UHGV virus genome: UHGV-1352141
Source: a virus
Length of the DNA stretch: 45,606 nucleotides
Direction: 5' to 3' (one strand)
Every line of letters starts with the position of its first letter. The stretch's first letter is position 1. Shown here in pieces: positions 1-26,639 of the stretch. The notes below the pieces were generated by a model, which was not told where the DNA came from, did not search any database, and saw only the letters and a program-made list of their open reading frames with translations. The position numbers and the translations under genes are program-made.

Positions 1-52
1 GAGCAGACGGCTCATAACCGTCCGGTCGTAGGTTCGAGTCCTACAGGGTACA
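1..52 (+). tRNA. 3' two-thirds of a tRNA with CAT anticodon (elongator Met or Ile2 type). The 5' part is at the window end 45586..45606.
   Basis: Readable D-stem 3' arm GAGC, anticodon stem GACGG/CCGTC with loop CTCATAA, variable loop CGGTC, T-arm GTAGG-TTCGAGT-CCTAC, acceptor 3' strand AGGGTAC plus discriminator A. CCA is not encoded. Confidence 0.8.
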
Positions 53-321: not shown

Positions 322-897
322 TTATTTTAACAACTCTGATTTCTTTGCCTCAAATTCTTCTTCTGTTAGAATTCCTAAATCAAAAAGTTCTTTTAGTTTT
401 TTCAAATCTTCAAAGTTGGCAAGAGCACTATCTGTAGGTTCAGCTGATTCATTACAACTGATAATATAGTTGAATCCTTCTAATGTAGCTTTTGCGTTAA
501 CTTTAGCTTGATTGTACACTACTTTGGATTTGTCAGATTTAGCAAAAATGAAGGGAATAGTTCTTGTAGCCTGTTTGTTGTTTTTTACAGTATAAATAAT
601 CTGCATATTTGTACAGAATTCTTTGTCAGTCTTTTTGATCTTTGAAAGACCACCAATTCCAGCTCCAGTATTTCCAAAGAAAGATCCACCTAAAATAGCT
701 CGTCCGGCAGAGACTCCACCTTCTACGATCTTTTGATCATCCTCAACTAATTCAAAGCTAATTAAGTCCTCAAATTTGAATACTTTTCCAGAAGCTTTAA
801 ATAGTTTCCTTTCTTCATCTATTTTTATTACACCAAATTTCGTAGTTGTCTTAAAATCACTTTTTTCATCAGACTTATTTTTTGAAAATAAACCCAT
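322..897 (-). CDS. SHOCT-domain protein with an N-terminal PH-like or DUF-type domain
   Basis: C-terminus LKKLKELFDLGILTEEEFEAKKSELL matches the SHOCT motif. A GAAGGG ribosome-binding site lies upstream. Confidence 0.65.
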   Translation of the reverse strand: MGLFSKNKSDEKSDFKTTTKFGVIKIDEERKLFKASGKVFKFEDLISFELVEDDQKIVEGGVSAGRAILGGSFFGNTGAGIGGLSKIKKTDKEFCTNMQIIYTVKNNKQATRTIPFIFAKSDKSKVVYNQAKVNAKATLEGFNYIISCNESAEPTDSALANFEDLKKLKELFDLGILTEEEFEAKKSELLK

Positions 898-982
898 ATT
901 AACCCTTCTCTCTCATAATAATTGTCTAGATTTATTTTACCATTAAGAAATATAGAATGAGTAAATCATCATTAAAAATGAT

Positions 983-1722
983 TCATACAATAATTTTTCC
1001 GCGATTCACTCGAAAACTATAAATCGCTATCTTTCGATTATTCCAACAAAACAACTTCTTATTTTTATGTAATAGTAAAATAGAAAACAAGGTCTTTATT
1101 GTCATGGCTGATCTTCTATTCTGGCGAAAAAATATAAGATTTCCTTCATCATCAGGTTTAGCAGTGGTCAGTGGTATTAATGTGCTGCCTATCTGAGTGT
1201 AGATACCTTTGTATTCCTCGTGAAAAGGATTTGCAGTTAATTGTTGCAGTAATTCGCCAGCCTTCATTTCATACCTTCTTTCGTTGGAACCTACTTGATT
1301 CAAATTCTAACATGATACTAGTTTTGCCGACAACTGCATATTTTTTAATAATGAATTGTTTTCTACTATTGTAGTCACCAGCCACTACGACTCGCATTCC
1401 GTTCTCAACATCTGCCAAAAAAGATAGTGAGTGTGAGGCAATAAGACATGACTGATTATTCAGCTTAAAATAGACAAGGGGGCGTTCTGAAAGCTTTAAT
1501 ATTTTAATACTACTCACTAAACCACTCATGCTCATCATTTAAACCACTCCCATATCTAAGAATATAAAAATCGTCATTGTGAAAGGCGTTTGCTTTCATA
1601 CAGTAAAACTCAAAACATTTTTCTCCGACTTCAAAAATACTATTTGGTCCGAAATCCCACAATAAGTCTTGTAATGTAGAAAAAGGTATATAGCCTTGTT
1701 CGTAGAGCAAAATAGGGTTCAT
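983..1722 (-). pseudogene. Three overlapping minus-strand ORFs (983..1303, 1269..1538, 1510..1722) in different frames, possibly one gene broken by two frameshifts
   Basis: The ORFs overlap by 29 to 35 nt in successive frames and the last one overlaps the YolD-like gene by 4 nt. No strong individual ribosome-binding sites. Confidence 0.3.
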
Positions 1723-2117
1723 TTCAGCTCACTCCATTTGTGCCAGTCGTACAACTCTACATGTCGTATTTCATCGTAATCTACTTTTTGATCATCAATG
1801 TAGATTCCTAATTCGTCATAGCCTTTTATCATACCTACCACATCATCTAAATATTTACCTTCCATATCTAGCTGTTCTAGCTGAATTGCGACAGGGCGTC
1901 TTTTTAAGCGAGCATGCTCTAGAACGTGTTGTATTTCGTGAGGGTACATCTGTGGCTTTTGTTCATTGACTCGTGATCGTTCAGCAACATCTTTTTGCAT
2001 TGCTGCAGTGTGATCGGATAAAAAGAATCCTGTCATCCACTTCAACATGCCCCTATCCTCATAAACGCTTTTGGCCTCTAAAAAAAGCTTTTCTGCTGAC
2101 TCATCATCATAAATCAT
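1719..2117 (-). CDS. YolD-like protein (track ORF 1719..2273 trimmed to an internal ATG)
   Basis: Contains DRGMLKWMTGFFLSDH, resembling the YolD-family DRGxIKW...LPEH motif. The internal start has the ribosome-binding site TGAGGTGAAGGTT. The upstream N-terminal extension overlaps the att-like repeats. Confidence 0.5.
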   Translation of the reverse strand: MIYDDESAEKLFLEAKSVYEDRGMLKWMTGFFLSDHTAAMQKDVAERSRVNEQKPQMYPHEIQHVLEHARLKRRPVAIQLEQLDMEGKYLDDVVGMIKGYDELGIYIDDQKVDYDEIRHVELYDWHKWSELK

Positions 2118-2188
2118 AACCTTCACCTCATCGACATTATAAGAACGTATGTTCTGGATGTAAAGCGAACAAATTATTAAGAATAAAA

Positions 2189-2401
2189 TGACCATACTTT
2201 GACCATATATAATAGAAGAAACTAGATTAATCCAGAACTTCAAATTGAAGAATAAACTTCGACATGGTTGCATTTGAGTCTATCTAGAATAGGTTAGGAC
2301 TACCCTAGATAGACTATGCAAAATAATTACAAGGTGCTAAATTCCTTTATATCAAGGGGTTTAGCGCTTCTTTTTTTGTTTTGACCATACTTTTGACCAT
2401 A
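2189..2401. other. Candidate attP: an 11-bp perfect inverted repeat (2277..2315) flanked symmetrically by TGACCATA direct repeats (2189..2207 and 2382..2401)
   Basis: AGTCTATCTAG-N17-CTAGATAGACT. TGACCATACTTTGACCATA lies about 97 bp to the left and TGACCATACTTTTGACCATA about 96 bp to the right, immediately 3' of the integrase gene. Confidence 0.4.
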
Positions 2402-2405
2402 GTAT

Positions 2406-3557
2406 TTAAAAGTTGATGTATTTCGCGAATTTTTCAGCAGATTTTTCTTGCTGATTTTTTGTTACGTGGGAGTAAATTTCGAGGGTTGTTCTGGCGTTGC
2501 TATGACCTAATCTATATTGAACTTCTTGAATGGACAAGCCCGCTTCAAACAGAAGGCTGCAATGTGTGTGTCTAAGTCCATGAACTTTTATATCTTCAAA
2601 ATTGTTAGCTTTACATATTCTAGCTAAAATGCGGTTTATTCTTGCGTGATCTAGAATTTGATTAGACTTGCTAGAAAAAACCAATTGATTGGGAGCTAAG
2701 GAATTAATACCATAACTCAATAAATATTTTCTTTGATCGATTCGCCATTTTTTTAAAATTTTGATTGTTTCGTTGTCTAAGGAGATTCGGCGATTCGAAC
2801 TATGACTTTTAGGATCGGTAATTATAGGGCGACCATTATAATTTCTTGCTGATGTTTTATTAATGTCTAAGGTTTTATTATCGAAATCTATATCGTTCCA
2901 TGTTAATGCTAAAAGTTCTCCTTTACGTATTCCTGTAAAAGATAGAAGTCTAAATAAAGGATATGTTAAAGGGTAACTATCCTCAGAGCAACATTTTAGG
3001 AATCGTTCAAGTTCTTCCTTTTCGAAGAATTTCTTTTCTTTGATTACCTCCTTCTTTTTCTTTGGAACAGGCACATGTTCCATAGGGTTATCATCTATAA
3101 GACGTAGTTCTTTTGCGTAGTCAAAGACAGCCGATGTGTAAGAACGAATAGCTTTGTAAGTTTTGTACTCCTGATACCATTCATTAACAATATTTTGGCA
3201 ATAAGGAATATTAATCTTGGAAATTCTTTTTTCTTTAAAATGTGGCAGTATATTGCTTTGGAAGATAGTATACACTCTACTGTATGAACTTTCTTTCACT
3301 GTATTTTTGTAACTTTTGAGCCATTTGTCAGCAACTTCTCCAAAAGTCATATTTGATTGCGGCGTGTACTTATTATCTTTAGCTTGAAGTTCCAACTTTG
3401 CTAAAGCTAGTTTTGCCTCCTTTTTTGTTTTAAAACCTCTTTTTGTTGTGTACTGCTTTTTTCCAGTTAAGGGATTAATACCTAGATATGTTTTGAAATA
3501 CCATGCTTTATCTCCGTTTTTCTTCTGGTATTGTTTTATCATTGCCATGTGACTCAC
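2406..3557 (-). CDS. int: Tyrosine site-specific integrase
   Basis: C-terminal catalytic signature HGLRHTHCSLL...LGHSNARTTLEIYSHV (R-H-R-Y). First gene of the lysogeny module, next to the att candidate. Confidence 0.9.
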   Translation of the reverse strand: MSHMAMIKQYQKKNGDKAWYFKTYLGINPLTGKKQYTTKRGFKTKKEAKLALAKLELQAKDNKYTPQSNMTFGEVADKWLKSYKNTVKESSYSRVYTIFQSNILPHFKEKRISKINIPYCQNIVNEWYQEYKTYKAIRSYTSAVFDYAKELRLIDDNPMEHVPVPKKKKEVIKEKKFFEKEELERFLKCCSEDSYPLTYPLFRLLSFTGIRKGELLALTWNDIDFDNKTLDINKTSARNYNGRPIITDPKSHSSNRRISLDNETIKILKKWRIDQRKYLLSYGINSLAPNQLVFSSKSNQILDHARINRILARICKANNFEDIKVHGLRHTHCSLLFEAGLSIQEVQYRLGHSNARTTLEIYSHVTKNQQEKSAEKFAKYINF

Positions 3558-3572
3558 TCCTCTTATTTTCGT

Positions 3573-3887
3573 TTATGGAATTTCCAGTTCTGCCATAGAA
3601 TCATCAAAATTTTCTACATAGTCATTTTCAGCAAAAAAATCTAACCATATTTGATACCCATTAAATTTAGGAACACCTTTGTGTGTTTTGATTTGCTCGT
3701 AGGCGTTTTTCACAACATCAGCCCACATTGACTCTACTTGACGCTCCATTTGTTTATCAGTCCACTTTTTTGTTTTTCCGGTTCTCTTTTTATTCTTTTC
3801 TTTTCGTGACTCCATAGCCTTAATAATAAAGATTTCATGCCCACGAGTATTTTGTTCTAACCATTCTTTGAATTCTTGGTGTTGCAT
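3573..3887 (-). CDS. Hypothetical small phage protein
   Basis: ORF between int and the ImmA-like gene. Basic lysine-rich centre. Confidence 0.5.
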   Translation of the reverse strand: MQHQEFKEWLEQNTRGHEIFIIKAMESRKEKNKKRTGKTKKWTDKQMERQVESMWADVVKNAYEQIKTHKGVPKFNGYQIWLDFFAENDYVENFDDSMAELEIP

Positions 3888-3956
3888 TTTTATTGCTCCT
3901 TTCGAATGTATGTTCGGTAAAAATGATAAAAAATTAATAATAGCTTTAATAGCTAT

Positions 3957-4385
3957 TTATAGATACCTTATTAATTCGTGAGGTAAACCCAAATAATCCA
4001 TAATTTGAAACTCTGTTAATCCATTTAAGTCATCTTTGTCTTGCATATAAATTAATAGTTTCATAGCGAGAGAATTTGCTTCACACTCCATTTTGGAAAT
4101 AAATGAATCCAAACCAACTGATCGATAAAATGGGGTAGTAGAACCTCCATGCATTTTTATATGACTAAATTCATGAAGGATGACGAATTTTTGATACCAT
4201 TCGGGCCAATTCACATTCACAATAATTGTGTGACAACGATGACTAGTTAGAGTGCAACCACCCGTTTCATCATCTAAATCTGCATAAAGTAATTTGCAAT
4301 GAGCCTCTCGTATTAATTCATAGACGTTGAAGGGCCGATATTTCTTAATAATTTTATCAAACGCATCGTCTACGTAGTAACTCAT
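3957..4385 (-). CDS. ImmA/IrrE-family metallopeptidase (anti-repressor protease)
   Basis: HEFSH zinc-binding motif. Sits immediately downstream of the XRE repressor, the canonical pairing. Confidence 0.75.
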   Translation of the reverse strand: MSYYVDDAFDKIIKKYRPFNVYELIREAHCKLLYADLDDETGGCTLTSHRCHTIIVNVNWPEWYQKFVILHEFSHIKMHGGSTTPFYRSVGLDSFISKMECEANSLAMKLLIYMQDKDDLNGLTEFQIMDYLGLPHELIRYL

Positions 4386-4400
4386 ATAGGGCCCTCCTAA

Positions 4401-4814
4401 CTAGTCTCTATAATCTTTACGGGTAAATTTTTGTTTTGCTTCTTCTTTGTTCATCTCCATTGCAGTACGAATAGCTATCAATAGACGATCTTTTTGATCT
4501 TTCGTAGCTGGCTCACCGTAGAAGTTCAAATTTTCCCCGTTAGCAATCCCCTCTATTAATTCTTCTGCCTGAATAGCGATATCTTTTTTCTCTTTGTCAG
4601 ACAATTCATAGTATTTCTTTTTCTCAGTTCGACCTAGTAGATAGTCAGTGGAAACATCGAAGTAATCAGCAACTTTTTGCAGTTTGTCGGATGCAGGACT
4701 GGTTTTATCCCATCGGTATATAGAGTTCTCACCAATTCCAATATTTGCTGCAAGTTCTTTAATAGTTACGTCTCTTTGTTTAGCTAGTAGTTTTATTCTG
4801 TCTAAAGTATTCAT
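4401..4814 (-). CDS. CI-like XRE-family HTH repressor
   Basis: N-terminal HTH (TIKELAANIGIGENSIYRWDKT). Start chosen at the ATG after the AAAGGTGA ribosome-binding site. Transcribed divergently from cro. Confidence 0.8.
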   Translation of the reverse strand: MNTLDRIKLLAKQRDVTIKELAANIGIGENSIYRWDKTSPASDKLQKVADYFDVSTDYLLGRTEKKKYYELSDKEKKDIAIQAEELIEGIANGENLNFYGEPATKDQKDRLLIAIRTAMEMNKEEAKQKFTRKDYRD

Positions 4815-4869
4815 AAAAATCACCTTTCAAGGAAAAGAGCACACTAAATAAAATATCTACCGAAAACGG

Positions 4870-4898
4870 TTGACAACTACCAAATTAGATAGTATACT
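4870..4898 (+). promoter_or_regulatory. Sigma-70-like promoter facing cro (TTGACA-17-TATACT)
   Basis: TTGACA at 4870..4875, a 17-nt spacer, TATACT at 4893..4898. Confidence 0.5.
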
Positions 4899-4990
4899 CA
4901 GTTCAGGATATAAGAAATGAGCAAAAATTAAGATATAAAAAAGTAATAAATCTTGGCGGATTTAGAATGCTTATTTCTGTATGTCTATAG

Positions 4991-5004
4991 TACCACATGT
5001 GGTA
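4991..5004. promoter_or_regulatory. Perfect 14-bp palindrome TACCACATGTGGTA, a likely CI/Cro operator in the divergent region
   Basis: Perfect dyad between the cI and cro starts. The related half-site CTACCA is also present at 4877..4882. Confidence 0.5.
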
Positions 5005-5050
5005 GATTTGTCAATTGTTTTTATCAAAAAAGATTGGAGGTGTACGCATT

Positions 5051-5254
5051 ATGGTTTCGATTGTTGCCAATATAAAAAGTATAGCAAAAGAAAAAGAACT
5101 TACCATCAAGCAAATTGGTAAAGATTCGGGAGTGGGTGCAAATGCTATTTATAGGTGGGATAAGCAAAATCCTAACTTAGCTAGTCTAAAAAAAGTATCA
5201 AATTATTTGAATGTACCGATTGAAGAATTATTAGATGAAAAACAGGAGGTATAA
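5051..5254 (+). CDS. Cro-like XRE HTH regulator
   Basis: HTH LTIKQIGKDSGVGANAIYRWDK. GGAGG ribosome-binding site 10 nt upstream of the ATG at 5051 (track ORF 5015.. trimmed). Confidence 0.75.
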   Translation: MVSIVANIKSIAKEKELTIKQIGKDSGVGANAIYRWDKQNPNLASLKKVSNYLNVPIEELLDEKQEV

Positions 5255-5256
5255 CC

Positions 5257-5562
5257 ATGAAGACTGTTCAAGTCAACAACGAGTTTTTTATACCAGATGA
5301 AATTTTACATCAAATTGCTGATATTACCGCTGATATTGTTCTTGAAAAAATTAAAGATCAGTTGGATATCTGGGATAAGATAATCGATTTGCCGCCAGCA
5401 CCTAATAAATCACAAATCATGAAGACGTTAGGAATTGGGAACGATACCTTGAACTTTCTTATCGCGAACGGAGCAACACCAATGGTGTGGGGAGAGAATA
5501 CAGTTCGGATCGAACGATCTGATCTTAGAAAGGCATTCGAGAACACAAAAATAGCTATGTAA
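5257..5562 (+). CDS. Excisionase-like small DNA-binding protein
   Basis: Small protein after cro with an HTH-like segment SQIMKTLGIGNDTLNFLIANG. Confidence 0.45.
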   Translation: MKTVQVNNEFFIPDEILHQIADITADIVLEKIKDQLDIWDKIIDLPPAPNKSQIMKTLGIGNDTLNFLIANGATPMVWGENTVRIERSDLRKAFENTKIAM

Positions 5563-5569
5563 AGTCTAA

Positions 5570-7340
5570 TGGTAATAAGTCAAGATGAAAATTGAGATTA
5601 TTTTTATTGAGTAACCTGTTTTGAAACACACTGAACTAGACCCGACCAAAATCAAATTTTTTTCGGGTTATTTCAAGGATTTGCGTCAATAACGATTTGT
5701 TATTTATCTATCACGCTCCTTGGCGGCGTGTAGAGTTGATGGTTACGTAGTAGCGTATCCACCAGACGCGTAAATTTCCTTGCGGTTAAGACGAGTGCTC
5801 GTTTGTGTTGATGTTTTGGAACCTCTTTACATTTACTTTGATAAAAAGCTTTGTATTCGGGAAGATAGTTTTTTACAGAGTTGGCAGCTTCAACTAAGTA
5901 GTAACGAAAATATCGATTCCCTTGTTTTGTCAGAGGTGTATTTTGAGATTGGTAATTTCCGGATTGTTTGACTTTCCAACTTAATCCGGCATACTTTGCC
6001 AATTTTGTTTGATCTTCAAATCGTTCGATTTGACCAATTTCAGCGATCAAGCCGGCAGCATAAACTTTCCCAATGCCTGGAATACTGGTTAAGCATTGGT
6101 ATTCTGGGATGACGACAACTAGTTGTTCAATTGCTTTATCCAGTTCTCTGATGTTCTTTTCAAGAGCCCGAATTTCACAGACAAGAATGCCCAAAACAAT
6201 ATCAATAGACTCTTGAGCTACAGATCCTAGGCGATAGCTTGATCTGATTGCTCGTTGAATTGCCTTGGCAATTCTCTCTGGTTGCTTGAACCGACCTCTT
6301 CCTTTTTCTTGGATTAAGTTACAGAAGGCTTCCAAAGGAAGCTCGGCTAATTCATCTAGGGTAAAGTCATCTGTCATAAGTGAAATGATTGTGGCACTGA
6401 AAAGACTTGTCGATTCGTCTCGTATTTCTCGAGCAAGTGTATTGCATTTGTACGTTAGATTTTCCAGAAAGTGTTGTTTTGTACGAGTTAATTGCTTTAT
6501 GAGTTGATAGCGAGTACGTGTTAAACGCTGTAAGGCCATGTACTTCTCTTCTTTGATAGGGGAAGTTGTAAATCGCTGAATACGCAAGAAGTCAGCAATT
6601 CTTAACGCATCGTTTTGATCGGTTTTATCTTCATCAAACATGCGTCTAAATTGTTTAATTCGAAAAGGATTTTCAATGGTTACTAACGTATTGATTTTCT
6701 TCAGTTCTTCATCTTCGTGAAAAAACATTGAAGGGTGGAAGCTGTACATGGAGGTTGACTCCATGCCAATCACAATTTGATTGAAGCCGTAGCTTTCATT
6801 GAATTCAAGAATCATTTCTCGTATTAATGAAGCACCTTCAATATCATTGGCAACAGAGATTTCAGACAAGATTGATAATTGACAGTCGTCTGTTAGGAAG
6901 CAAACATCTAATTTTTCAGAACTAACGTCAATACCGATAAATAATTTCATGGAAGAAGGACCTCCTTTCGATTTGAATTTTGGAAAATGCTTCGATACTG
7001 TGGGATTTCCCAGAAACTCACTGTGTAGCCACAACCTCGCCTAATAGAATACGGTGATAAAAGAGCTAGAAGCTGCCTTCCAACTACTATTTGAAAGTCT
7101 AGTCCATTATCGAAACAGCTAATGAGTTGGTAGTGATAACAGTGGTTCGGGTAACAGACTTTGCAAGGTAGACAAAGCTACAGGAGGCAATAGCAAATTC
7201 CCGCTGGATCCTTTCCATATATCCATTGTACTCTGAGAAATCACACAATATCGAAACAAATTCCGTTAGGAATATGTTATTCAATAAATTTTACCGTTCA
7301 GAAACATTTTGGTTAAAAATCATTAGACAAATAATAGTTT
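5570..7340. mobile_element. IS110-family insertion sequence (boundaries approximate)
   Basis: Single DEDD-type transposase with non-coding flanks, interrupting the phage early-gene array between the xis-like gene and the first early gene. No terminal inverted repeats, as is typical for IS110. Confidence 0.5.
5700..6950 (-). CDS. IS110-family transposase
   Basis: N-terminal MKLFIGIDVSSEKLDVCF and DEDKTDQNDALRIADFLR (DEDD) motifs, C-terminal IPGIGKVYAAGLIAEIG. AGGAGG ribosome-binding site before the ATG at 6950 (track ORF trimmed). Confidence 0.85.
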   Translation of the reverse strand: MKLFIGIDVSSEKLDVCFLTDDCQLSILSEISVANDIEGASLIREMILEFNESYGFNQIVIGMESTSMYSFHPSMFFHEDEELKKINTLVTIENPFRIKQFRRMFDEDKTDQNDALRIADFLRIQRFTTSPIKEEKYMALQRLTRTRYQLIKQLTRTKQHFLENLTYKCNTLAREIRDESTSLFSATIISLMTDDFTLDELAELPLEAFCNLIQEKGRGRFKQPERIAKAIQRAIRSSYRLGSVAQESIDIVLGILVCEIRALEKNIRELDKAIEQLVVVIPEYQCLTSIPGIGKVYAAGLIAEIGQIERFEDQTKLAKYAGLSWKVKQSGNYQSQNTPLTKQGNRYFRYYLVEAANSVKNYLPEYKAFYQSKCKEVPKHQHKRALVLTARKFTRLVDTLLRNHQLYTPPRSVIDK

Positions 7341-22432: not shown

Positions 22433-22481
22433 TTTATGAATAAAAACTGACAAGATAATTATACCATAAGGAGTGGCGATT

Positions 22482-22961
22482 GTGAGATTTCAATGGTTAA
22501 GGGATTATCAAGATTTGGAAGAACAGTTACTCTACTTAAAGTGGAATCTGAATAAAAGTAAACTTGAATTGATTCGGTGGACAACTGGTGATTTATCGAA
22601 AGTACGTATAGAAAAAAACTCTCGATCGTCATTGCTCGAAGAGAATATTACTCAAATTGAAAATGAGATTGAATTGTTAGAAGAACAACAAAAGGAAATG
22701 TTGGTCATTATTCAATCTTTCAAAGGAGTCGAAAATGAAATTGTTCGTATGAAGTACATTGAGGGATTAACTTTGGAAGAAATAGTGGAAGAAACCGGAT
22801 ATAGCGATTCTTACATAAGAAAAAAGCATGCGGAAATCAGAAGTAAGCTTCAATTTATTGATGATTACGAGGCTCGCCATTTAGATAGAAAAGCAAAAAA
22901 AGAAGAGCTTGAATACTACGATGAAAAAAGGAGAAAAACTCAGCAACTTTCCCTTTTTTGA
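22482..22961 (+). CDS. ArpU-family late transcription regulator
   Basis: C-terminal sigma-70 region-4-like HTH (GLTLEEIVEETGYSDSYIRKKHAEI). GTG start 8 nt after AAGGAG. Confidence 0.65.
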   Translation: MRFQWLRDYQDLEEQLLYLKWNLNKSKLELIRWTTGDLSKVRIEKNSRSSLLEENITQIENEIELLEEQQKEMLVIIQSFKGVENEIVRMKYIEGLTLEEIVEETGYSDSYIRKKHAEIRSKLQFIDDYEARHLDRKAKKEELEYYDEKRRKTQQLSLF

Positions 22962-23245
22962 AAATTTCAACATTCACTAAATGTGCACTCATTTTGTGTA
23001 TGGAAGTATTGAAATAGGCATGATATTTTATTAGCATAGAAAATTTTGAAAGGAGGAAGCTCCTCTTCGTTTCAATTTTTTCGATCGTTTGCAAGACGAT
23101 AAATACTAGACGGCACAAAAAATAAATAATGAATGGAGTTGAAAAGTTTCATTTCCGTTGAAAGTTCGCTGTGCTGTCTATTGTTATCAAATAATTTTTA
23201 TTAAAATTTATAGATTTCGAATATGTTCTTTTGTATAATATTTAA

Positions 23246-23396
23246 CGTAGAGAAGTTAAGATGAGTAGCTCCATTTTTATGACTCTGCACAAGTTAAAAA
23301 ATGATATATCTGAATGATTCTTTTAAACAATTCAAAAAACGATCTTACTCATCTTAACAACTCTACAGGATGTGAGTACATCACGTTCTTTTTTGC
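23246..23396 (+). ncRNA. Candidate small RNA of about 150 nt, from a TGTATAAT promoter to an intrinsic terminator
   Basis: -10 box at 23234..23239. A long internal stem GTAGAGAAGTTAAGATGAGTAG / CTTACTCATCTTAACAACTCTAC. Terminator ATGTGA-GTACA-TCACGT plus T-run at 23370..23396. No convincing ORF. Confidence 0.35.
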
Positions 23397-23536
23397 TGTT
23401 AAATTAAAACATACTAGCATGATTATTAGTCTTTTTGTATAATATTTGCGTAGAAAAGTGAAAAGATGGTGGCTAATCTCTTGAATAAAGGGGTGATGCC
23501 TATGGTTCATAGCTTTATCCCTAGAAGGGAGTAGGC

Positions 23537-23623
23537 ATGTCTGTTTATCAAGCGTTGTCGCTGATGATCGCATTTGCGACGTTAGTGTTGCTGATTACAG
23601 ATCACACGAACACAAAAAAATAA
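23537..23623 (+). CDS. Candidate type I toxin-like peptide (28 aa)
   Basis: MSVYQALSLMIAFATLVLLITDHTNTKK. The ribosome-binding site GGGAGTAGGC sits inside an inverted repeat GCCTAT...ATAGGC. Driven by a second copy of the TGTATAAT promoter at 23445..23453. Confidence 0.4.
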   Translation: MSVYQALSLMIAFATLVLLITDHTNTKK

Positions 23624-23702
23624 TCATCTTTTAACACTTTAGCGAGAGTTAAGATGATTATCTTCTTAATATTCAGCTACCGTCTTTTTAACGGTTCTAC
23701 AT

Positions 23703-23729
23703 GGACGTGTTTGCAGCACGTCCTTTTTC
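23703..23729 (+). terminator. Intrinsic terminator after the toxin-like ORF
   Basis: GGACGTG-TTTGCAG-CACGTCC followed by TTTTT. Confidence 0.6.
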
Positions 23730-23819
23730 TATATCTATTATAACATGTGAATAAAGAAAATCAATTGAGATCGCTTCGGCGGTCTTTTTATTTTGAAATA
23801 CTTTTGAGGAGTGATTGCT

Positions 23820-23894
23820 ATGAAGCAAGTGTTAGATCGAGTGAAACGATTGTTTGGTAGGCGTAATGGATTAGTGACAGCAGTCTCCTCGTGA
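23820..23894 (+). CDS. Possible 24-aa basic peptide ORF
   Basis: GAGGAG ribosome-binding site 8 nt upstream. Peptide MKQVLDRVKRLFGRRNGLVTAVSS. Bracketed by terminator-like hairpins at 23769..23794 and CCTCGTGAGG plus T-run at 23888..23910. Confidence 0.3.
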   Translation: MKQVLDRVKRLFGRRNGLVTAVSS

Positions 23895-23917
23895 GGCTGT
23901 TTTATTTTGCTCACAAA

Positions 23918-24135
23918 AATAGACCACTACCGGGTAATAGTGGTCAGGAATTAAATGAAAAAGATGTTAAAGGGTTGTTAGACAAGTATAACATCATAGC
24001 GTTTACATAGCAATACAAAAAAGAGCCACTGTTTCCGCAGCAGCCCTTTAGTGTAACAAGTAACTATAAATATATCATCCTTGGCCATGTATTTCAACAC
24101 ACAAAAATAGACCGCTGTTTCCGCAGCGATCTATC
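23918..24135 (-). repeat. Array B: three more hairpin/terminator units of the same family
   Basis: GACCACTA/TAGTGGTC at 23922..23945 and GACCGCTG/CAGCGATC at 24110..24131, each followed on the minus strand by T-runs. GTAACAAGTAAC motif at 24052, shared with 21529. Confidence 0.5.
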
Positions 24136-24210
24136 TGTGAAACGTAAACAATTTATACATAAAGCATACAATAATAACGCTTACATTGCAACGCAGAAAG
24201 GGATAGAGCA

Positions 24211-24493: not shown

Positions 24494-25363
24494 ATGGCAA
24501 GAAAACGTGATCCTAGACGTGACGAAGCGTTTGAGTTATTTAAAAAGTCTAATGGATCAATAACTAATCGGGAAATTGCCGAAAAACTTTCTGTTCCCGA
24601 AAAAACGATCTCCGCTTGGAAATCGAGAGATAAATGGAATGCAGTACTACAAAACGATAATTGTAGTACTGCAAAAAATGATTGTAGTACTACAAACAGA
24701 GGCGGCGCTCCTACAGGAAACAAAAATGCTAAAGGGAATAAAGGAAACAGCCGAGCTTCACCGCCTTTAAGAAATAAGAATGCTCTTAAAACTGGGGAGT
24801 TTGAGTCAATATATTTTGATACTTTAAGTGAGGAGGAAAAGGAACTTTATTCAACTATGAATGATGATCCTTTTTTTGTGTTGTCTGGAGAAGTTCGAAT
24901 GTTGCAAATCAGACAACGGCGCATGATGAAAAGAATACAAGATGCAGAAACAGGATTAAACGATGAAGAAATCGAACGCCTTCAACAATTAAGGAAAGTC
25001 AAAACGCCTGTCGAACATGACGGGAAGAAGCTTGAAATTAAGTATGAGGTTCTAAAAGATGTTCAGGTAACAAGAAAAACGTATCGAAAGATCGACGATA
25101 TATTGTCTATCGAAGAGGCGTTGACTAGGATTAGTAATCAATTATCCAGATCAATTAAGCAATTGGCCGAACTAGAAATGAATAATCATAGAGCTGGATT
25201 GTTTGATAAGCAAAAAGAAAAAGCAGAAGCTGAAATTCGTCGCCTGAAGATTCAGAATGGTGAGTTTGAACAAGACGAGATCGGTGATGATGGATTTGTT
25301 GAAGCAATCAAAGGAATAGCGAATGATCCGGAGGTGTGGTCTGATGACGACATCGAAACATAA
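24494..25363 (+). CDS. terS: Terminase small subunit
   Basis: N-terminal HTH (SITNREIAEKLSVPEKTISAWKSRDKWN). Directly upstream of and overlapping terL. Confidence 0.75.
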   Translation: MARKRDPRRDEAFELFKKSNGSITNREIAEKLSVPEKTISAWKSRDKWNAVLQNDNCSTAKNDCSTTNRGGAPTGNKNAKGNKGNSRASPPLRNKNALKTGEFESIYFDTLSEEEKELYSTMNDDPFFVLSGEVRMLQIRQRRMMKRIQDAETGLNDEEIERLQQLRKVKTPVEHDGKKLEIKYEVLKDVQVTRKTYRKIDDILSIEEALTRISNQLSRSIKQLAELEMNNHRAGLFDKQKEKAEAEIRRLKIQNGEFEQDEIGDDGFVEAIKGIANDPEVWSDDDIET

Positions 25364-26639
25364 ATCTAAGATGAAGGTGGTTTTTAAGTTTAGACCATTT
25401 TCAAAAAGGCAGAAGCAAGTTTTGTCTTGGTGGGAGAACCCGAAGTATAAAGATAAAGAAGCAATCATTTGCGATGGGTCAGTTCGTGCGGGTAAAACGG
25501 TCATCATGTCATTGGCATTCATTATCTGGGCTATGTGTTCATTCAATGAAGAACAGTTTGGAATGGCCGGCAAGACGATTGGATCATTAAGACGGAATGT
25601 TATTCGTCCGTTAAAGCGAATGCTGCGAGGTCGTGGTTATGTCGTTAAGGATAATCGAACCGACAATATTATTGAAATCAGCAAAAACGATGTCACCAAT
25701 TATTTTTTTCTTTTTGGTGGAAAAGATGAAGCTTCCCAAGATTTAGTCCAAGGATTAACCGCCGCTGGTTTCTTTTTTGATGAAGTTGCACTTATGCCAC
25801 AATCATTCGTTAATCAAGCGACAGCTCGTTGTAATATTGAAGGTTCAAAGTATTGGTTTAACTGTAACCCAGCAGGCCCGCATCATTGGTTCAAACTAGA
25901 ATGGATTGACAAGTTAACCGAGAAGAATGCGATTCGGATTCATTTTGAAATGACTGATAATCCTTCGTTAAGTCAAAAAGTTATCGAAAGATATAAGCGA
26001 ATGTATAGCGGTGTATTCTACGATCGTTTTATTCGAGGGTTGTGGGTTCTTTCAGAGGGAATCATTTACGATAACTTCGATAAAGATAAAATGGTGAAAA
26101 AACCACCGGAAAATATTTCAGCAAGTCAATATTATGTATCGATAGACTATGGTACTCAAAATGCCACAGTCTTTTTATTGTGGGCAAAGCATGGTAAACA
26201 ATGGTATTGCATAGATGAGTATTACTATTCTGGTCGTGATTCTTCAAGACAAAAAACAGATGCTGAATATAGTCAAGAGCTTAAATCATTTCTTGCTGAT
26301 AGAAAAGCCACAATTATTGTCGACCCGTCAGCGGCCTCTTTTATTGCAGAATTGCAGAAAAATGGTTTTAAAGTAATAAAAGCGAAAAACGATGTTTTGG
26401 ACGGAATACGAGCTACACAAACAGCAATGAATCAAGGGGAAATATATTTTACAGATAGATGCAAAAATTTATTTATTGAATTTGCATCCTATATTTGGGA
26501 TGAAAAAGCCGGAGAACGAGGCGAAGATAAACCAATCAAGCAGTTTGATCATGCATGTGATGCATTGAGGTACTTCGTGTATACGATACTAAATAATCGT
26601 GTTGCAGTGATTGGTAATAAAGCGAAAATTGGACTATAA
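25344..26639 (+). CDS. terL: Terminase large subunit
   Basis: Walker A DGSVRAGKT, then a nuclease domain. GGAGGTG ribosome-binding site before the ATG at 25344. Confidence 0.85.
   Translation: MTTSKHKSKMKVVFKFRPFSKRQKQVLSWWENPKYKDKEAIICDGSVRAGKTVIMSLAFIIWAMCSFNEEQFGMAGKTIGSLRRNVIRPLKRMLRGRGYVVKDNRTDNIIEISKNDVTNYFFLFGGKDEASQDLVQGLTAAGFFFDEVALMPQSFVNQATARCNIEGSKYWFNCNPAGPHHWFKLEWIDKLTEKNAIRIHFEMTDNPSLSQKVIERYKRMYSGVFYDRFIRGLWVLSEGIIYDNFDKDKMVKKPPENISASQYYVSIDYGTQNATVFLLWAKHGKQWYCIDEYYYSGRDSSRQKTDAEYSQELKSFLADRKATIIVDPSAASFIAELQKNGFKVIKAKNDVLDGIRATQTAMNQGEIYFTDRCKNLFIEFASYIWDEKAGERGEDKPIKQFDHACDALRYFVYTILNNRVAVIGNKAKIGL

Follow-up and report, generated by a model that had tools for sequence, protein, structure and literature searches.

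RESULTS

Location and organization of the locus

The locus lies in a window (the whole stretch of DNA that was analysed, viral genome UHGV-1352141) of 45,606 nucleotides, within a prophage that is carried by a megaplasmid of Enterococcus raffinosus. A type I toxin-antitoxin-like module had been proposed here in an initial annotation made from the sequence, and all of the elements that it described were found, with small corrections to their coordinates. The following features were assigned.

23229-23396, plus strand: RNA 1, a truncated paralogue of the toxin gene with a promoter copy, the arms of the closing helix and a terminator-like hairpin
23433-23447, plus strand: toxin promoter block, with a -10 TATAAT at 23438-23443 and a weak -35
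23450-23729, plus strand: toxin mRNA (rli28-family RNA) of ~280 nt, ends presumed
23450-23474, plus strand: 5' arm of the long-range closing helix, GTAGAAAAGTGAAAAGATGGTGGCT, carrying the AGATGG motif
23518-23530, plus strand: anti-Shine-Dalgarno UCCCU (23518-23522) and Shine-Dalgarno AGGGA (23526-23530), paired in the minimum-free-energy (MFE) structure
23537-23623, plus strand: putative toxin open reading frame (ORF) of 28 amino acids, MSVYQALSLMIAFATLVLLITDHTNTKK, Hol_Tox family
23614-23667, either strand: post-stop hairpin with arms at 23614-23630 and 23651-23667, assigned from inverted repeat I3 and folding
23675-23700, plus strand: 3' arm of the closing helix, AGCTACCGTCTTTTTAACGGTTCTAC; on the minus strand, the middle hairpin CCGTT..ACGG of the antitoxin
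23703-23728, plus strand: intrinsic terminator of the toxin mRNA, with its stem at 23703-23723 and T run at 23724-23728
23610-23730, minus strand: putative antitoxin antisense RNA of ~120 nt, ends presumed
23737-23764, minus strand: antitoxin promoter, with TTGATT at 23764-23759, a 16-nt spacer, TATAAT at 23742-23737 and TG at 23745-23744

The upstream neighbour (22473-22961) is a gene for a sigma-like regulator. Its earlier name, ArpU, was not borne out, as Pfam searches detected only sub-threshold matches to sigma-70 region 4. Downstream lies terS (24494-25363), encoding the small terminase subunit. Antisense ORFs of at least 60 codons do occur in the interval, as had been noted, but two of them (22855-23118 and 23349-23573) overlap it rather than one. 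Repeats D3 and D6 had hinted at a third, older copy of the unit upstream, at 23018-23215; aligned globally, this segment matched neither RNA 1 nor the cassette better than shuffled sequences did (z = -0.7 and 1.2), and this candidate was rejected.

Toxin promoter and mRNA

A perfect TATAAT, nearly invariant among 69 relatives, forms the -10 element of the toxin promoter. The 15-nt block around it, TTTTGTATAATATTT, is repeated exactly at 23229-23243 and 23433-23447, with a second perfect TATAAT at 23234-23239, and a 1-nt indel separates the two copies of a longer version of the motif. The near-identical promoters described earlier are hence a genuine repeat, but their positions of 23231 and 23445 required correction. 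Neither plus-strand promoter was called by a consensus scan, and the -35 elements were unconvincing. Transcription of the toxin gene probably starts near 23450.

The transcribed region is a member of Rfam family RF01492 (rli28), with a full-length match (model positions 1 to 186) at 23428-23610 of the plus strand that scored 130.9 bits against a gathering cut-off of 45 bits. E values of the family matches were 2e-18 and below. Matches to CopA, microRNAs and snoRNAs elsewhere in the Rfam scan of the interval fell far under their cut-offs and were discarded as noise. The mRNA is predicted to be highly structured, with an MFE of -101.3 kcal/mol (z = -7.4). The strong terminator expected after the toxin gene was found, and the terminator scan assigned it nine pairs, five of which are G-C. 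The scan detected 11 terminator-like sites in the region, compared to 0.7 expected by chance. The complement of this terminator (23703-23728) forms the first hairpin of the antitoxin.

The toxin ORF is coding and under purifying selection

The 28-codon ORF is present as had been described. Its product matched Pfam family PF16935 (Hol_Tox) over residues 1 to 20 with 32.6 bits (E = 7.4e-8; gathering cut-off, 23.3 bits), and an identical peptide is already in the NCBI database as "putative holin-like toxin [Enterococcus]". Hol_Tox was the sole Pfam family matched above its cut-off, and no match to the Fst family was obtained. An NCBIfam match to ComI was far below its cut-off (17 versus 55 bits), and a tblastn search with the peptide gave no Bacillus plasmid match at an E value of 1 or less.

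The ORF was retained in all 69 relatives, with conservation of both its length and its Lys-Lys-stop ending. Start codons were confined to ATG (n = 34), GTG (n = 20) and TTG (n = 15). Entropies at the three codon positions were 1.14, 0.71 and 1.49, the third position being the most variable, and the fraction of synonymous changes was 0.56 compared to an expected 0.24. In the hydrophobic core, the window and its sister strain differed by synonymous changes only. These results demonstrated that the ORF is genuinely coding and is subject to purifying selection.

The first annotation of rli28 in Listeria implied another reading, namely that the plus-strand transcript is a noncoding regulatory small RNA whose 28-codon ORF is untranslated. 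Rfam files rli28 as a small RNA gene, and the Shine-Dalgarno (SD) sequence is predicted to be sequestered. However, type I toxin mRNAs typically have a sequestered SD (PMC6562991, PMC8594479), and the universal retention of ORF length, start-codon class and ending, the coding-type surplus of synonymous changes and the Hol_Tox match all argue against a noncoding transcript, which we consider highly improbable. With the ORF read as a toxin gene, toxicity of the peptide and its repression by RNA would follow by analogy with characterized systems, EF3263 and BsrE lending indirect support (PMC2887945, PMC6562991).

Structure of the toxin mRNA

In the MFE structure, the 5' end of the mRNA (23450-23474) pairs with 23675-23700, just before the terminator. 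The corresponding consensus helices (helices 1 to 3) were 89% to 99% paired and contained compensatory changes at five pairs, and the CCGT...ACGG element was nearly invariant (63 to 69 relatives). Compensatory changes were also detected in four of the seven pairs of helix 8, the post-stop hairpin, and in three of the five pairs of helix 9, the toxin terminator; AAAAAATAA was present in 56 of the 69 relatives. Over the alignment, 92.6% of cells were paired compared to at most 56.5% when the partners were slid. Compensatory changes occurred in 22 of 50 pairs, and none of 500 shuffles reached the observed values.

The SD sequence AGGGA (23526-23530) was predicted to be paired with a probability of 0.81 to 0.98. 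Among 14 relatives, the pairing probability of the SD core was at least 0.8 in 11, and one more exhibited this level at three of the four core positions. Burial of the ribosome-binding site was thereby upheld as a prediction, but its partner is mainly UCCCU at 23518-23522 and not GCCTATGG as previously proposed. An alternative pairing of CCCU with an upstream GGGG, as in the Rfam structure, fits the variation equally well. The model suggests that the mRNA would be held in a poorly translatable state by the paired SD together with the 5'-3' closing helix.

The recurring motif AG(A/T)GnnAAGATG(A/G) of the initial annotation was confirmed, with copies AGTTAAGATGAGTAGCT at 23254, AGTGAAAAGATGG at 23457 and AGTTAAGATGATTATCT at 23647, the first and last of which are 88% identical. 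The first copy fits the regular expression only if a 1-nt gap is allowed, and the third starts from ~23645 rather than at 23656. The AGATGG repeats mark stretches that base-pair with each other within the toxin mRNA. GA(T/C)GG in the 5' untranslated region (UTR) closes the mRNA through ACCGTC, located ~215 nt downstream, and varies in concert with a post-stop segment, CC(A/G)TC, as well as with the hairpin partner of that segment.

[quoted passage not shown]

The minus-strand promoter had been viewed as a possible promoter with a suboptimal spacer of 15 nt. The promoter is there, with a spacer of 16 nt, 10 of 12 matches to the consensus in the promoter scan and a TG element, and it is better founded than that description implied: a TGnTATAAT-like -10 was found at the equivalent place in 13 of 14 aligned relatives.

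Rfam family RF01776 (RatA) matched the minus strand at 23740-23655 with 43.3 bits (E = 2.4e-4), slightly short of the 49-bit gathering cut-off; BsrG gave a weak match as well. A model of the antitoxin (R1) was built from 63 other homologous loci, with the window excluded, and matched the minus strand of the window at 23736-23606 with 98.5 bits (E = 5e-20). At the equivalent position, 7 of 13 relatives exceeded the RatA cut-off, and rli28 on the plus strand was paired with RatA on the minus strand in 11 of the 13 relatives compared. On this sequence evidence, the putative antisense RNA of the window is homologous to the RatA-like RNAs that flank rli28 genes.

The antisense RNA is predicted to fold into three hairpins (z = -6.1). 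Its complementarity to the toxin mRNA is complete, with a Watson-Crick run of 121 nt that extends from the final codons of the ORF through the 3' UTR and across the toxin mRNA terminator. The post-stop hairpin (23614-23667), read on the minus strand and followed by a U run, constitutes the antitoxin terminator. This U run is the complement of the toxin Lys-Lys codons (23615-23620) and the preceding A (23614), and the toxin stop codon (23621-23623) falls in the adjoining stem. The Lys-Lys-stop codons hence exhibit dual coding, serving also as the U run of the antitoxin terminator.

RNA 1 is a partial duplicate of the toxin gene

A long internal stem, a terminator and the absence of an ORF had been attributed to RNA 1, and each was borne out. 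Inverted arms of 32 nt (23247-23278 and 23335-23366) are followed by a terminator-like hairpin (23367-23389) and a T run, and the RNA is without an SD, an ORF or a post-stop hairpin. Alignment with the cassette gave a local score of 44 compared to a shuffle maximum of 33 to 35, and a global z of 5.6 to 6.3. RNA 1 occurred in three E. raffinosus megaplasmids only. A search with the antitoxin model detected no antisense RNA opposite RNA 1, and the plus strand gave only a noise-level match (10.3 bits; E = 2.5).

An alternative reading is that RNA 1 (23246-23396) is a functional partner acting in trans, either as a second antitoxin on the toxin mRNA or as a decoy that titrates the antisense antitoxin. 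Its promoter is identical to that of the toxin gene, which implies probable coexpression, and it is well folded (z = -5.8). The helix arms are the same in two strains that differ elsewhere in RNA 1. Furthermore, a stem of RNA 1, GTTAAGATGAGTA/TACTCATCTTAAC, resembles or complements the 3' hairpin of the toxin in this strain (repeats D5 and I11). The matching hairpin allele, however, was also present in Enterococcus gallinarum and Vagococcus, both of which are without RNA 1. Because E. gallinarum and Vagococcus silagei share the allele in the absence of RNA 1, there is also no need to invoke gene conversion of the hairpin by RNA 1, or the reverse, in this strain.

Predictions of pairing did not favour a role in trans. 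The cofolding gain of RNA 1 with the toxin mRNA was 0.0 kcal/mol compared to -0.6 ± 0.8 kcal/mol for shuffles; with the antitoxin it was -6.3 compared to -4.8 ± 2.0, and the longest Watson-Crick run between RNA 1 and the antitoxin (11) equalled the shuffle maximum. An unconstrained duplex energy had pointed to pairing with the antitoxin (-62 versus -32 kcal/mol), but this gain, which is due to shared ancestry, vanished once intramolecular folding was allowed. All relatives outside E. raffinosus lack RNA 1, nearly all of them having the cis-antisense RNA instead, and other decayed tandem copies are known in the family (locus L020). These results made a partner role for RNA 1 very unlikely. RNA 1 is best regarded as a partial tandem copy that has decayed and for which no role could be demonstrated, and the antitoxin would be the cis-antisense RNA from the minus-strand promoter and not RNA 1.

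The cassette is an insulated and widespread unit

The cassette was detected in 327 plasmid records, at 70 genome loci across Bacilli and in 25 viral contigs. Its position in the window, between the gene for the sigma-like regulator and terS and in the same orientation as the packaging genes, could indicate that its transcripts serve the phage late operon as leaders or attenuators, and the term "holin-like" in the Pfam name could point to a phage holin acting in lysis. The distribution argues against both, as hundreds of plasmids and chromosomes carry the cassette without phage late genes close by, and in the window the lysis module is nowhere near. The strong toxin terminator ends the cassette, a second terminator follows at 23767-23786, and ~480 nt separate the cassette from the next gene. 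A late-operon leader or a holin is highly improbable, and the cassette forms an insulated insertion that divides the regulatory module of the prophage from its packaging module.

DISCUSSION

We put a probability of about 85% on the region holding a single intact type I toxin-antitoxin cassette, which belongs to the family that combines rli28/Hol_Tox with a RatA-like RNA, a group that includes bsrH/as-bsrH and bsrE/SR5 of Bacillus subtilis. The earlier type I interpretation was supported by the matches to Rfam rli28 and Pfam Hol_Tox, the RatA-type antisense RNA, the retention of the ORF in every relative and the covarying RNA structure. Its core, namely a single-helix peptide whose ribosome-binding site is sequestered and which has a partner RNA, as in modules carried by Firmicutes prophages, was upheld. 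The cassette is an ordinary copy of a widespread and already catalogued module and is not new as a discovery.

In the proposed mechanism, a rightward promoter dominated by its -10 element would produce the ~280-nt mRNA for a single-helix membrane peptide of 28 amino acids. The 5' end of this mRNA would pair ~225 nt downstream and close the molecule, and the SD would be paired with the anti-SD just upstream, with the result that the mRNA alone would be poorly translated. The convergent promoter just past the toxin terminator would produce the ~120-nt antisense RNA with its three hairpins. Its sequence is a perfect complement of the toxin mRNA from the final codons through the 3' UTR, in which the 3' arm of the closing helix lies, and across the terminator. 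When in excess, the antitoxin would anneal over a long stretch to the 3' portion of the toxin mRNA, and by analogy with the characterized Bacillus systems the mRNA would then be degraded by RNase III, by other RNases or by both. If the element were lost or transcription of the cassette stopped, the antitoxin would presumably decay first, and the peptide could then be made and damage the membrane. BsrE shows only weak toxicity in its B. subtilis host (PMC6562991), and strong killing is therefore not to be assumed.

The closest relatives of the cassette are bsrH/bsrE and txpA/RatA, with the 3'-overlap layout. [quoted passage not shown] The window shares with bsrH/as-bsrH (skin element) and bsrE/SR5 (P6 prophage) a toxin of 28 to 30 amino acids that has a single membrane-spanning helix and a polar tail, a structured toxin mRNA of 255 to 285 nt with a paired SD, a prophage location and a convergent antitoxin with a 3'-end overlap of more than 100 nt; the predicted antitoxin is shorter, at ~120 nt compared to 163 to 200 nt (PMC6562991). 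The presumed likeness of the peptide to BsrH and BsrE in sequence rests on the Listeria homologue, which has 38% identity to BsrH (PMC9484302). RatA resembles the antitoxin of the window, whereas TxpA, at 59 amino acids, is a member of the BsrG group.

In Listeria, plasmids pLM80, pLM7802 and pLM5446 carry an rli28 that overlaps a BsrH-like ORF and is convergent with RatA; both RNAs are highly expressed, and a putative toxin-antitoxin function has been proposed for them (PMC9484302). The two RNA families, the convergent arrangement and a homologous peptide are common to these loci and the window. Listeria plasmid loci L008 and L009 align to the cassette across the whole unit, sharing the 5' UTR, the SD region, the Lys-Lys-stop ending, the post-stop hairpin, the CCGT hairpin and the antisense -10. 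The window differs in its host (Enterococcus), in its carrier (a prophage on a megaplasmid), in a DNA identity of ~70% to 73% and in an antisense RNA slightly under the RatA cut-off.

EF3263 of Enterococcus faecalis is a TxpA-family toxin of 27 amino acids that has a ~110-nt antisense RNA and is toxic in Escherichia coli (PMC2887945, PMC3074167). According to the published description, the antisense RNA of this V583 locus (EF3263 [Ref40]/Ref46) lies over the 3' UTR, as in the window. In V583, part of the toxin RNA is directly duplicated (the 167-nt drm1/drm2 motif), which offers a precedent for RNA 1 (PMC2887945, PMC3074167); that duplication flanks an inserted mazEF operon, whereas the copies in the window are directly tandem. 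The par locus (Fst/RNA I-RNA II) of pAD1 is also an enterococcal type I system in which transcription is convergent and a small hydrophobic peptide is encoded. Complementarity in par involves 5' direct repeats and a shared terminator; in the window it is a single continuous 3' overlap of 121 nt. The likeness to par/Fst direct repeats drawn in the initial annotation was not sustained, as the peptide belongs to Hol_Tox and not to Fst or Ldr and the AGATGG segments pair within the toxin mRNA.

The AGATGG motif could also represent a switch not described for the rli28/Hol_Tox family. Either the 5' UTR might pair transiently with the post-stop segment while transcription proceeds, or the antitoxin terminator stem might make a second contact with the 5' UTR. 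RNA 1 retains exactly the pairing arms of such a switch without the ORF and might tune it in E. raffinosus. We regard this proposal as speculative and unlikely.

The discovery value of the locus is small, as the peptide is in the NCBI database, the mRNA is over the Rfam threshold and RatA-type pairing has been described on Listeria plasmids. The analysis nevertheless indicates that "rli28" loci in Enterococcus should be annotated as toxin mRNAs and that the Rfam cut-off misses the antisense antitoxin of the window genome. The cassette also illustrates tandem duplication followed by decay within the family. If active, it would probably stabilize the prophage or the megaplasmid or respond to a shut-off of transcription.

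A catalogued toxin-antitoxin cassette upstream of the packaging genes

The region was found to be 100% identical to ~1-Mb Enterococcus raffinosus megaplasmids (NZ_CP104393 and NZ_CP104765), and the prophage in the window is siphophage-like. A 1.25-kb gap between a regulator gene and the packaging genes is occupied by the toxin cassette and by RNA 1, an ORF-less upstream element, and terminator-like hairpins were over-represented in this gap (11 versus 0.7 expected). The main features were as follows.

22473-22961: regulator gene, for which the name ArpU is plausible; Pfam sigma-70 region 4, subthreshold (23.3 bits versus a cut-off of 24.1)
23229-23396, plus strand: RNA 1
~23450-23729, plus strand: toxin mRNA
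~23730 to 23610, minus strand: convergent antisense antitoxin RNA
Antitoxin hairpin 1, minus strand: complement of the toxin terminator
Antitoxin hairpin 2, minus strand: CCGTT..ACGG, nearly invariant
Antitoxin hairpin 3, minus strand: long and A/U rich, followed by seven U's
24494-25363: small terminase subunit
25323-26639: large terminase subunit

At the left edge of the window, a partial tRNA (1-52, plus strand; Rfam tRNA, 35.4 bits), whose 5' end is cut by the edge, adjoins the leftward genes at 322-7034 and is possibly the prophage attachment site.

An Rfam scan detected a full-length match to rli28 (RF01492) at 23428-23610 on the plus strand (130.9 bits versus a cut-off of 45) and, directly downstream on the opposite strand, a match to RatA (RF01776) of 43.3 bits, below the cut-off of 49, with a weak BsrG match alongside. 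The toxin peptide scored above the Pfam Hol_Tox threshold, and an identical 28-aa peptide is present in NCBI on 38 contigs under the name "putative holin-like toxin [Enterococcus]." The initial annotation had correctly recognized a type I toxin-antitoxin module from the sequence, and all of the elements that it described were present, with corrections limited to coordinates; its likeness to par/Fst loci was unsupported. The same arrangement of rli28, RatA and a BsrH-like ORF occurs on Listeria plasmids, for which a type I toxin-antitoxin function was suggested (PMC9484302), and bsrE/bsrH-like systems have been reported in Enterococcus (PMC6562991). The E. faecalis toxin EF3263, 27 aa in length, has an ~110-nt antisense RNA, and toxicity was reported for it in E. 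coli (PMC2887945). Overall, the type I toxin-antitoxin cassette in the window is one that had been catalogued before, and we infer its putative function from homology alone.

By BLAST, 327 plasmid records carried the 23429-23745 unit (Enterococcus, 247; Staphylococcus, 33; Listeria, 32; Lactococcus, 12), and a search with the conserved 5' UTR pattern identified 70 genomic loci, spread over many Bacilli, as well as 25 viral contigs. All 13 fetched relatives contained rli28, followed in 11 by a convergent RatA, 7 of these being above the cut-off. Staphylococcus-type cassettes were also observed in assemblies from unrelated phyla, namely, Rhodococcus sp. (a 630-bp contig with a coverage of 0.66), Herbaspirillum sp. 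and a Dehalococcoidia MAG; the aligned cassettes of the first two were near-identical, and all three are most likely contaminant contigs. Streptococcus phages Javan424, 426, 638 and 269 exhibited ~80% identity to the antitoxin and terminator part only (23656-23746), without the rli28 part, suggesting that streptococcal prophages may combine RatA-like antitoxins with other toxin genes.

Toxin ORF and mRNA structure

The 28-codon ORF at 23537-23623 was confirmed and, judged by comparison of sequences, is coding. An ORF of 23 to 29 codons was retained in all 69 aligned relatives, with ATG (n = 34), GTG (n = 20) or TTG (n = 15) as the only start codons. Entropies of the three codon positions were 1.14, 0.71 and 1.49, and 56% of single-base codon differences were synonymous versus 24% expected. 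Between the window and the sister E. raffinosus strain, the hydrophobic core had two changes, both synonymous, and further changes were present in the polar tail.

Duplicated promoters had been proposed; an exact 15-mer is indeed present in two copies, starting at 23229 and 23433 instead of 23231 and 23445; in each copy the TATAAT is perfect and the -35 weak. The strong terminator of the toxin mRNA lies at 23703-23723. Folding of the mRNA (23450-23730) gave -101 kcal/mol (z = -7.4), with predicted pairing of the 5' end (23450-74) to 23675-23700 (the closing helix) and of the Shine-Dalgarno (SD) AGGGA to a UCCCU just upstream. In the consensus structure of 14 relatives, 92.6% of cells were paired versus ≤56.5% with the partners slid, and 22 of 50 pairs had compensatory changes; 0 of 500 shuffles reached these values. 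The SD core was predicted to be paired (P ≥ 0.8) in 11 of the 14 and at three of four core positions in one more. Two candidate partners of CCCU, the SD and an upstream GGGG (Rfam structure), both fit the variation.

The repeated motif of the initial annotation corresponds to three segments, which are AGATGGT in the 5' UTR, ACCATCT after the stop codon and AGATGGT as the hairpin partner of the latter. A T/C change in the 5' UTR tracks an A/G change after the stop codon across the family. Cognate duplexes of these segments had a mean of -9.78 versus -8.75 kcal/mol for noncognate duplexes, with 0 of 2,000 permutations as low, a comparison confounded by shared ancestry, and the pattern does not hold in some staphylococcal members. 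This covariation is a hint that is as yet unexplained.

Antitoxin RNA

The minus-strand promoter, previously considered suboptimal, is a good extended -10 promoter (TTGATT, 16 nt and TATAAT with an upstream TG; 23764..23737), and of 14 aligned relatives, 13 kept a TGnTATAAT-like -10 on the minus strand beyond the toxin terminator. Folding of a minus-strand RNA that starts near 23730 gave three hairpins (z = -6.1). With 63 homologous antisense regions as its input, the window and its sister strain being left out, a covariance model matched 23736..23606 on the minus strand with 98.5 bits (E = 5e-20), and no other match above noise was detected in this search. Complementarity to the toxin mRNA extends over 121 nt, a 3'-overlap layout shared with txpA/RatA, bsrG/SR4, bsrE/SR5 and bsrH/as-bsrH (PMC6562991). 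At 23614-23623 the DNA is dually coding: the last two Lys codons of the toxin (AAAAAA) and the preceding A template the U run of the antitoxin terminator, and hence AAAAAATAA was present in 56 of 69 relatives. The toxin stop codon (TAA) sits in the stem adjoining this U run.

RNA 1 and neighboring mosaic patches

RNA 1 has the long stem and terminator described initially (inverted arms of 32 nt; a terminator-like hairpin). It had been proposed as a possible partner of the toxin mRNA; cofolding with either the toxin mRNA or the antitoxin predicted no net interaction beyond that of shuffles, and the partner is corrected to the antisense RNA. The 5' end of RNA 1 aligned to the cassette promoter and the first ~40 nt of the 5' UTR, and its 3' end aligned to the closing-helix 3' arm plus the terminator (local score of 44 versus a shuffle maximum of 33 to 35; global z of 5.6 to 6.3), while the SD, ORF and post-stop hairpin are missing. 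Its antisense strand did not match the antitoxin model, which gave only a noise-level plus-strand match (10.3 bits; E = 2.5), and direct reading indicated decay of the antisense -10 to TTTAAT. RNA 1 was limited to three E. raffinosus megaplasmids. Tandem or multiple cassettes were found in E. ureilyticus, in S. simiae and on one IMG/VR contig (three loci); the second E. ureilyticus copy is truncated, its ORF having 23 aa and the antitoxin hairpins being absent, and parallels RNA 1. In E. faecalis V583, the EF3263 toxin RNA is partly duplicated (PMC3074167). Because of the cassette-like ends, the missing parts, the restriction to E. raffinosus, the null cofolding results and the tandem or partial copies elsewhere, RNA 1 is best read as a relic of tandem duplication, which may still be transcribed.

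Minus-strand terminator-like hairpins were observed at 23912-23945, 24015-24049 and 24100-24136, with the common motif ACAAAAA(T)AGA(C/G)C(A/G)CT (repeats D1 and D4). A sigma-70-like promoter that includes an upstream TG closely precedes each of the two downstream hairpins (24097..24069 and 24013..23985); for 24100-24136, a weaker promoter match was seen by eye only. The predicted RNAs would be only ~50 to 65 nt long and lie a short way upstream of the packaging genes; these sites could be very small sRNA genes, insulators of transcription or repeats bound by terminase near a cos/pac site.

Comparison of 23799-23877 with ~2170-2400 of the ATCC 49464 prophage locus detected a swapped cassette between two otherwise identical E. 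raffinosus prophages, with the terminators at 23767-23786 and 23879-23901 flanking it in both. The alleles were as follows.

23811/23820-23894: short basic ORF, MKQVLDRVKRLFGRRNGLVTAVSS, window allele
Strain ATCC 49464 allele: unrelated ORF of ~60 aa

Mosaic patches in otherwise identical DNA were also present in the toxin-antitoxin 3' hairpin and in the RNA 1 loop and terminator. The swapped cassette and these patches suggest that the patchwork differences between strains arose by recombination between alleles and not by point mutation.
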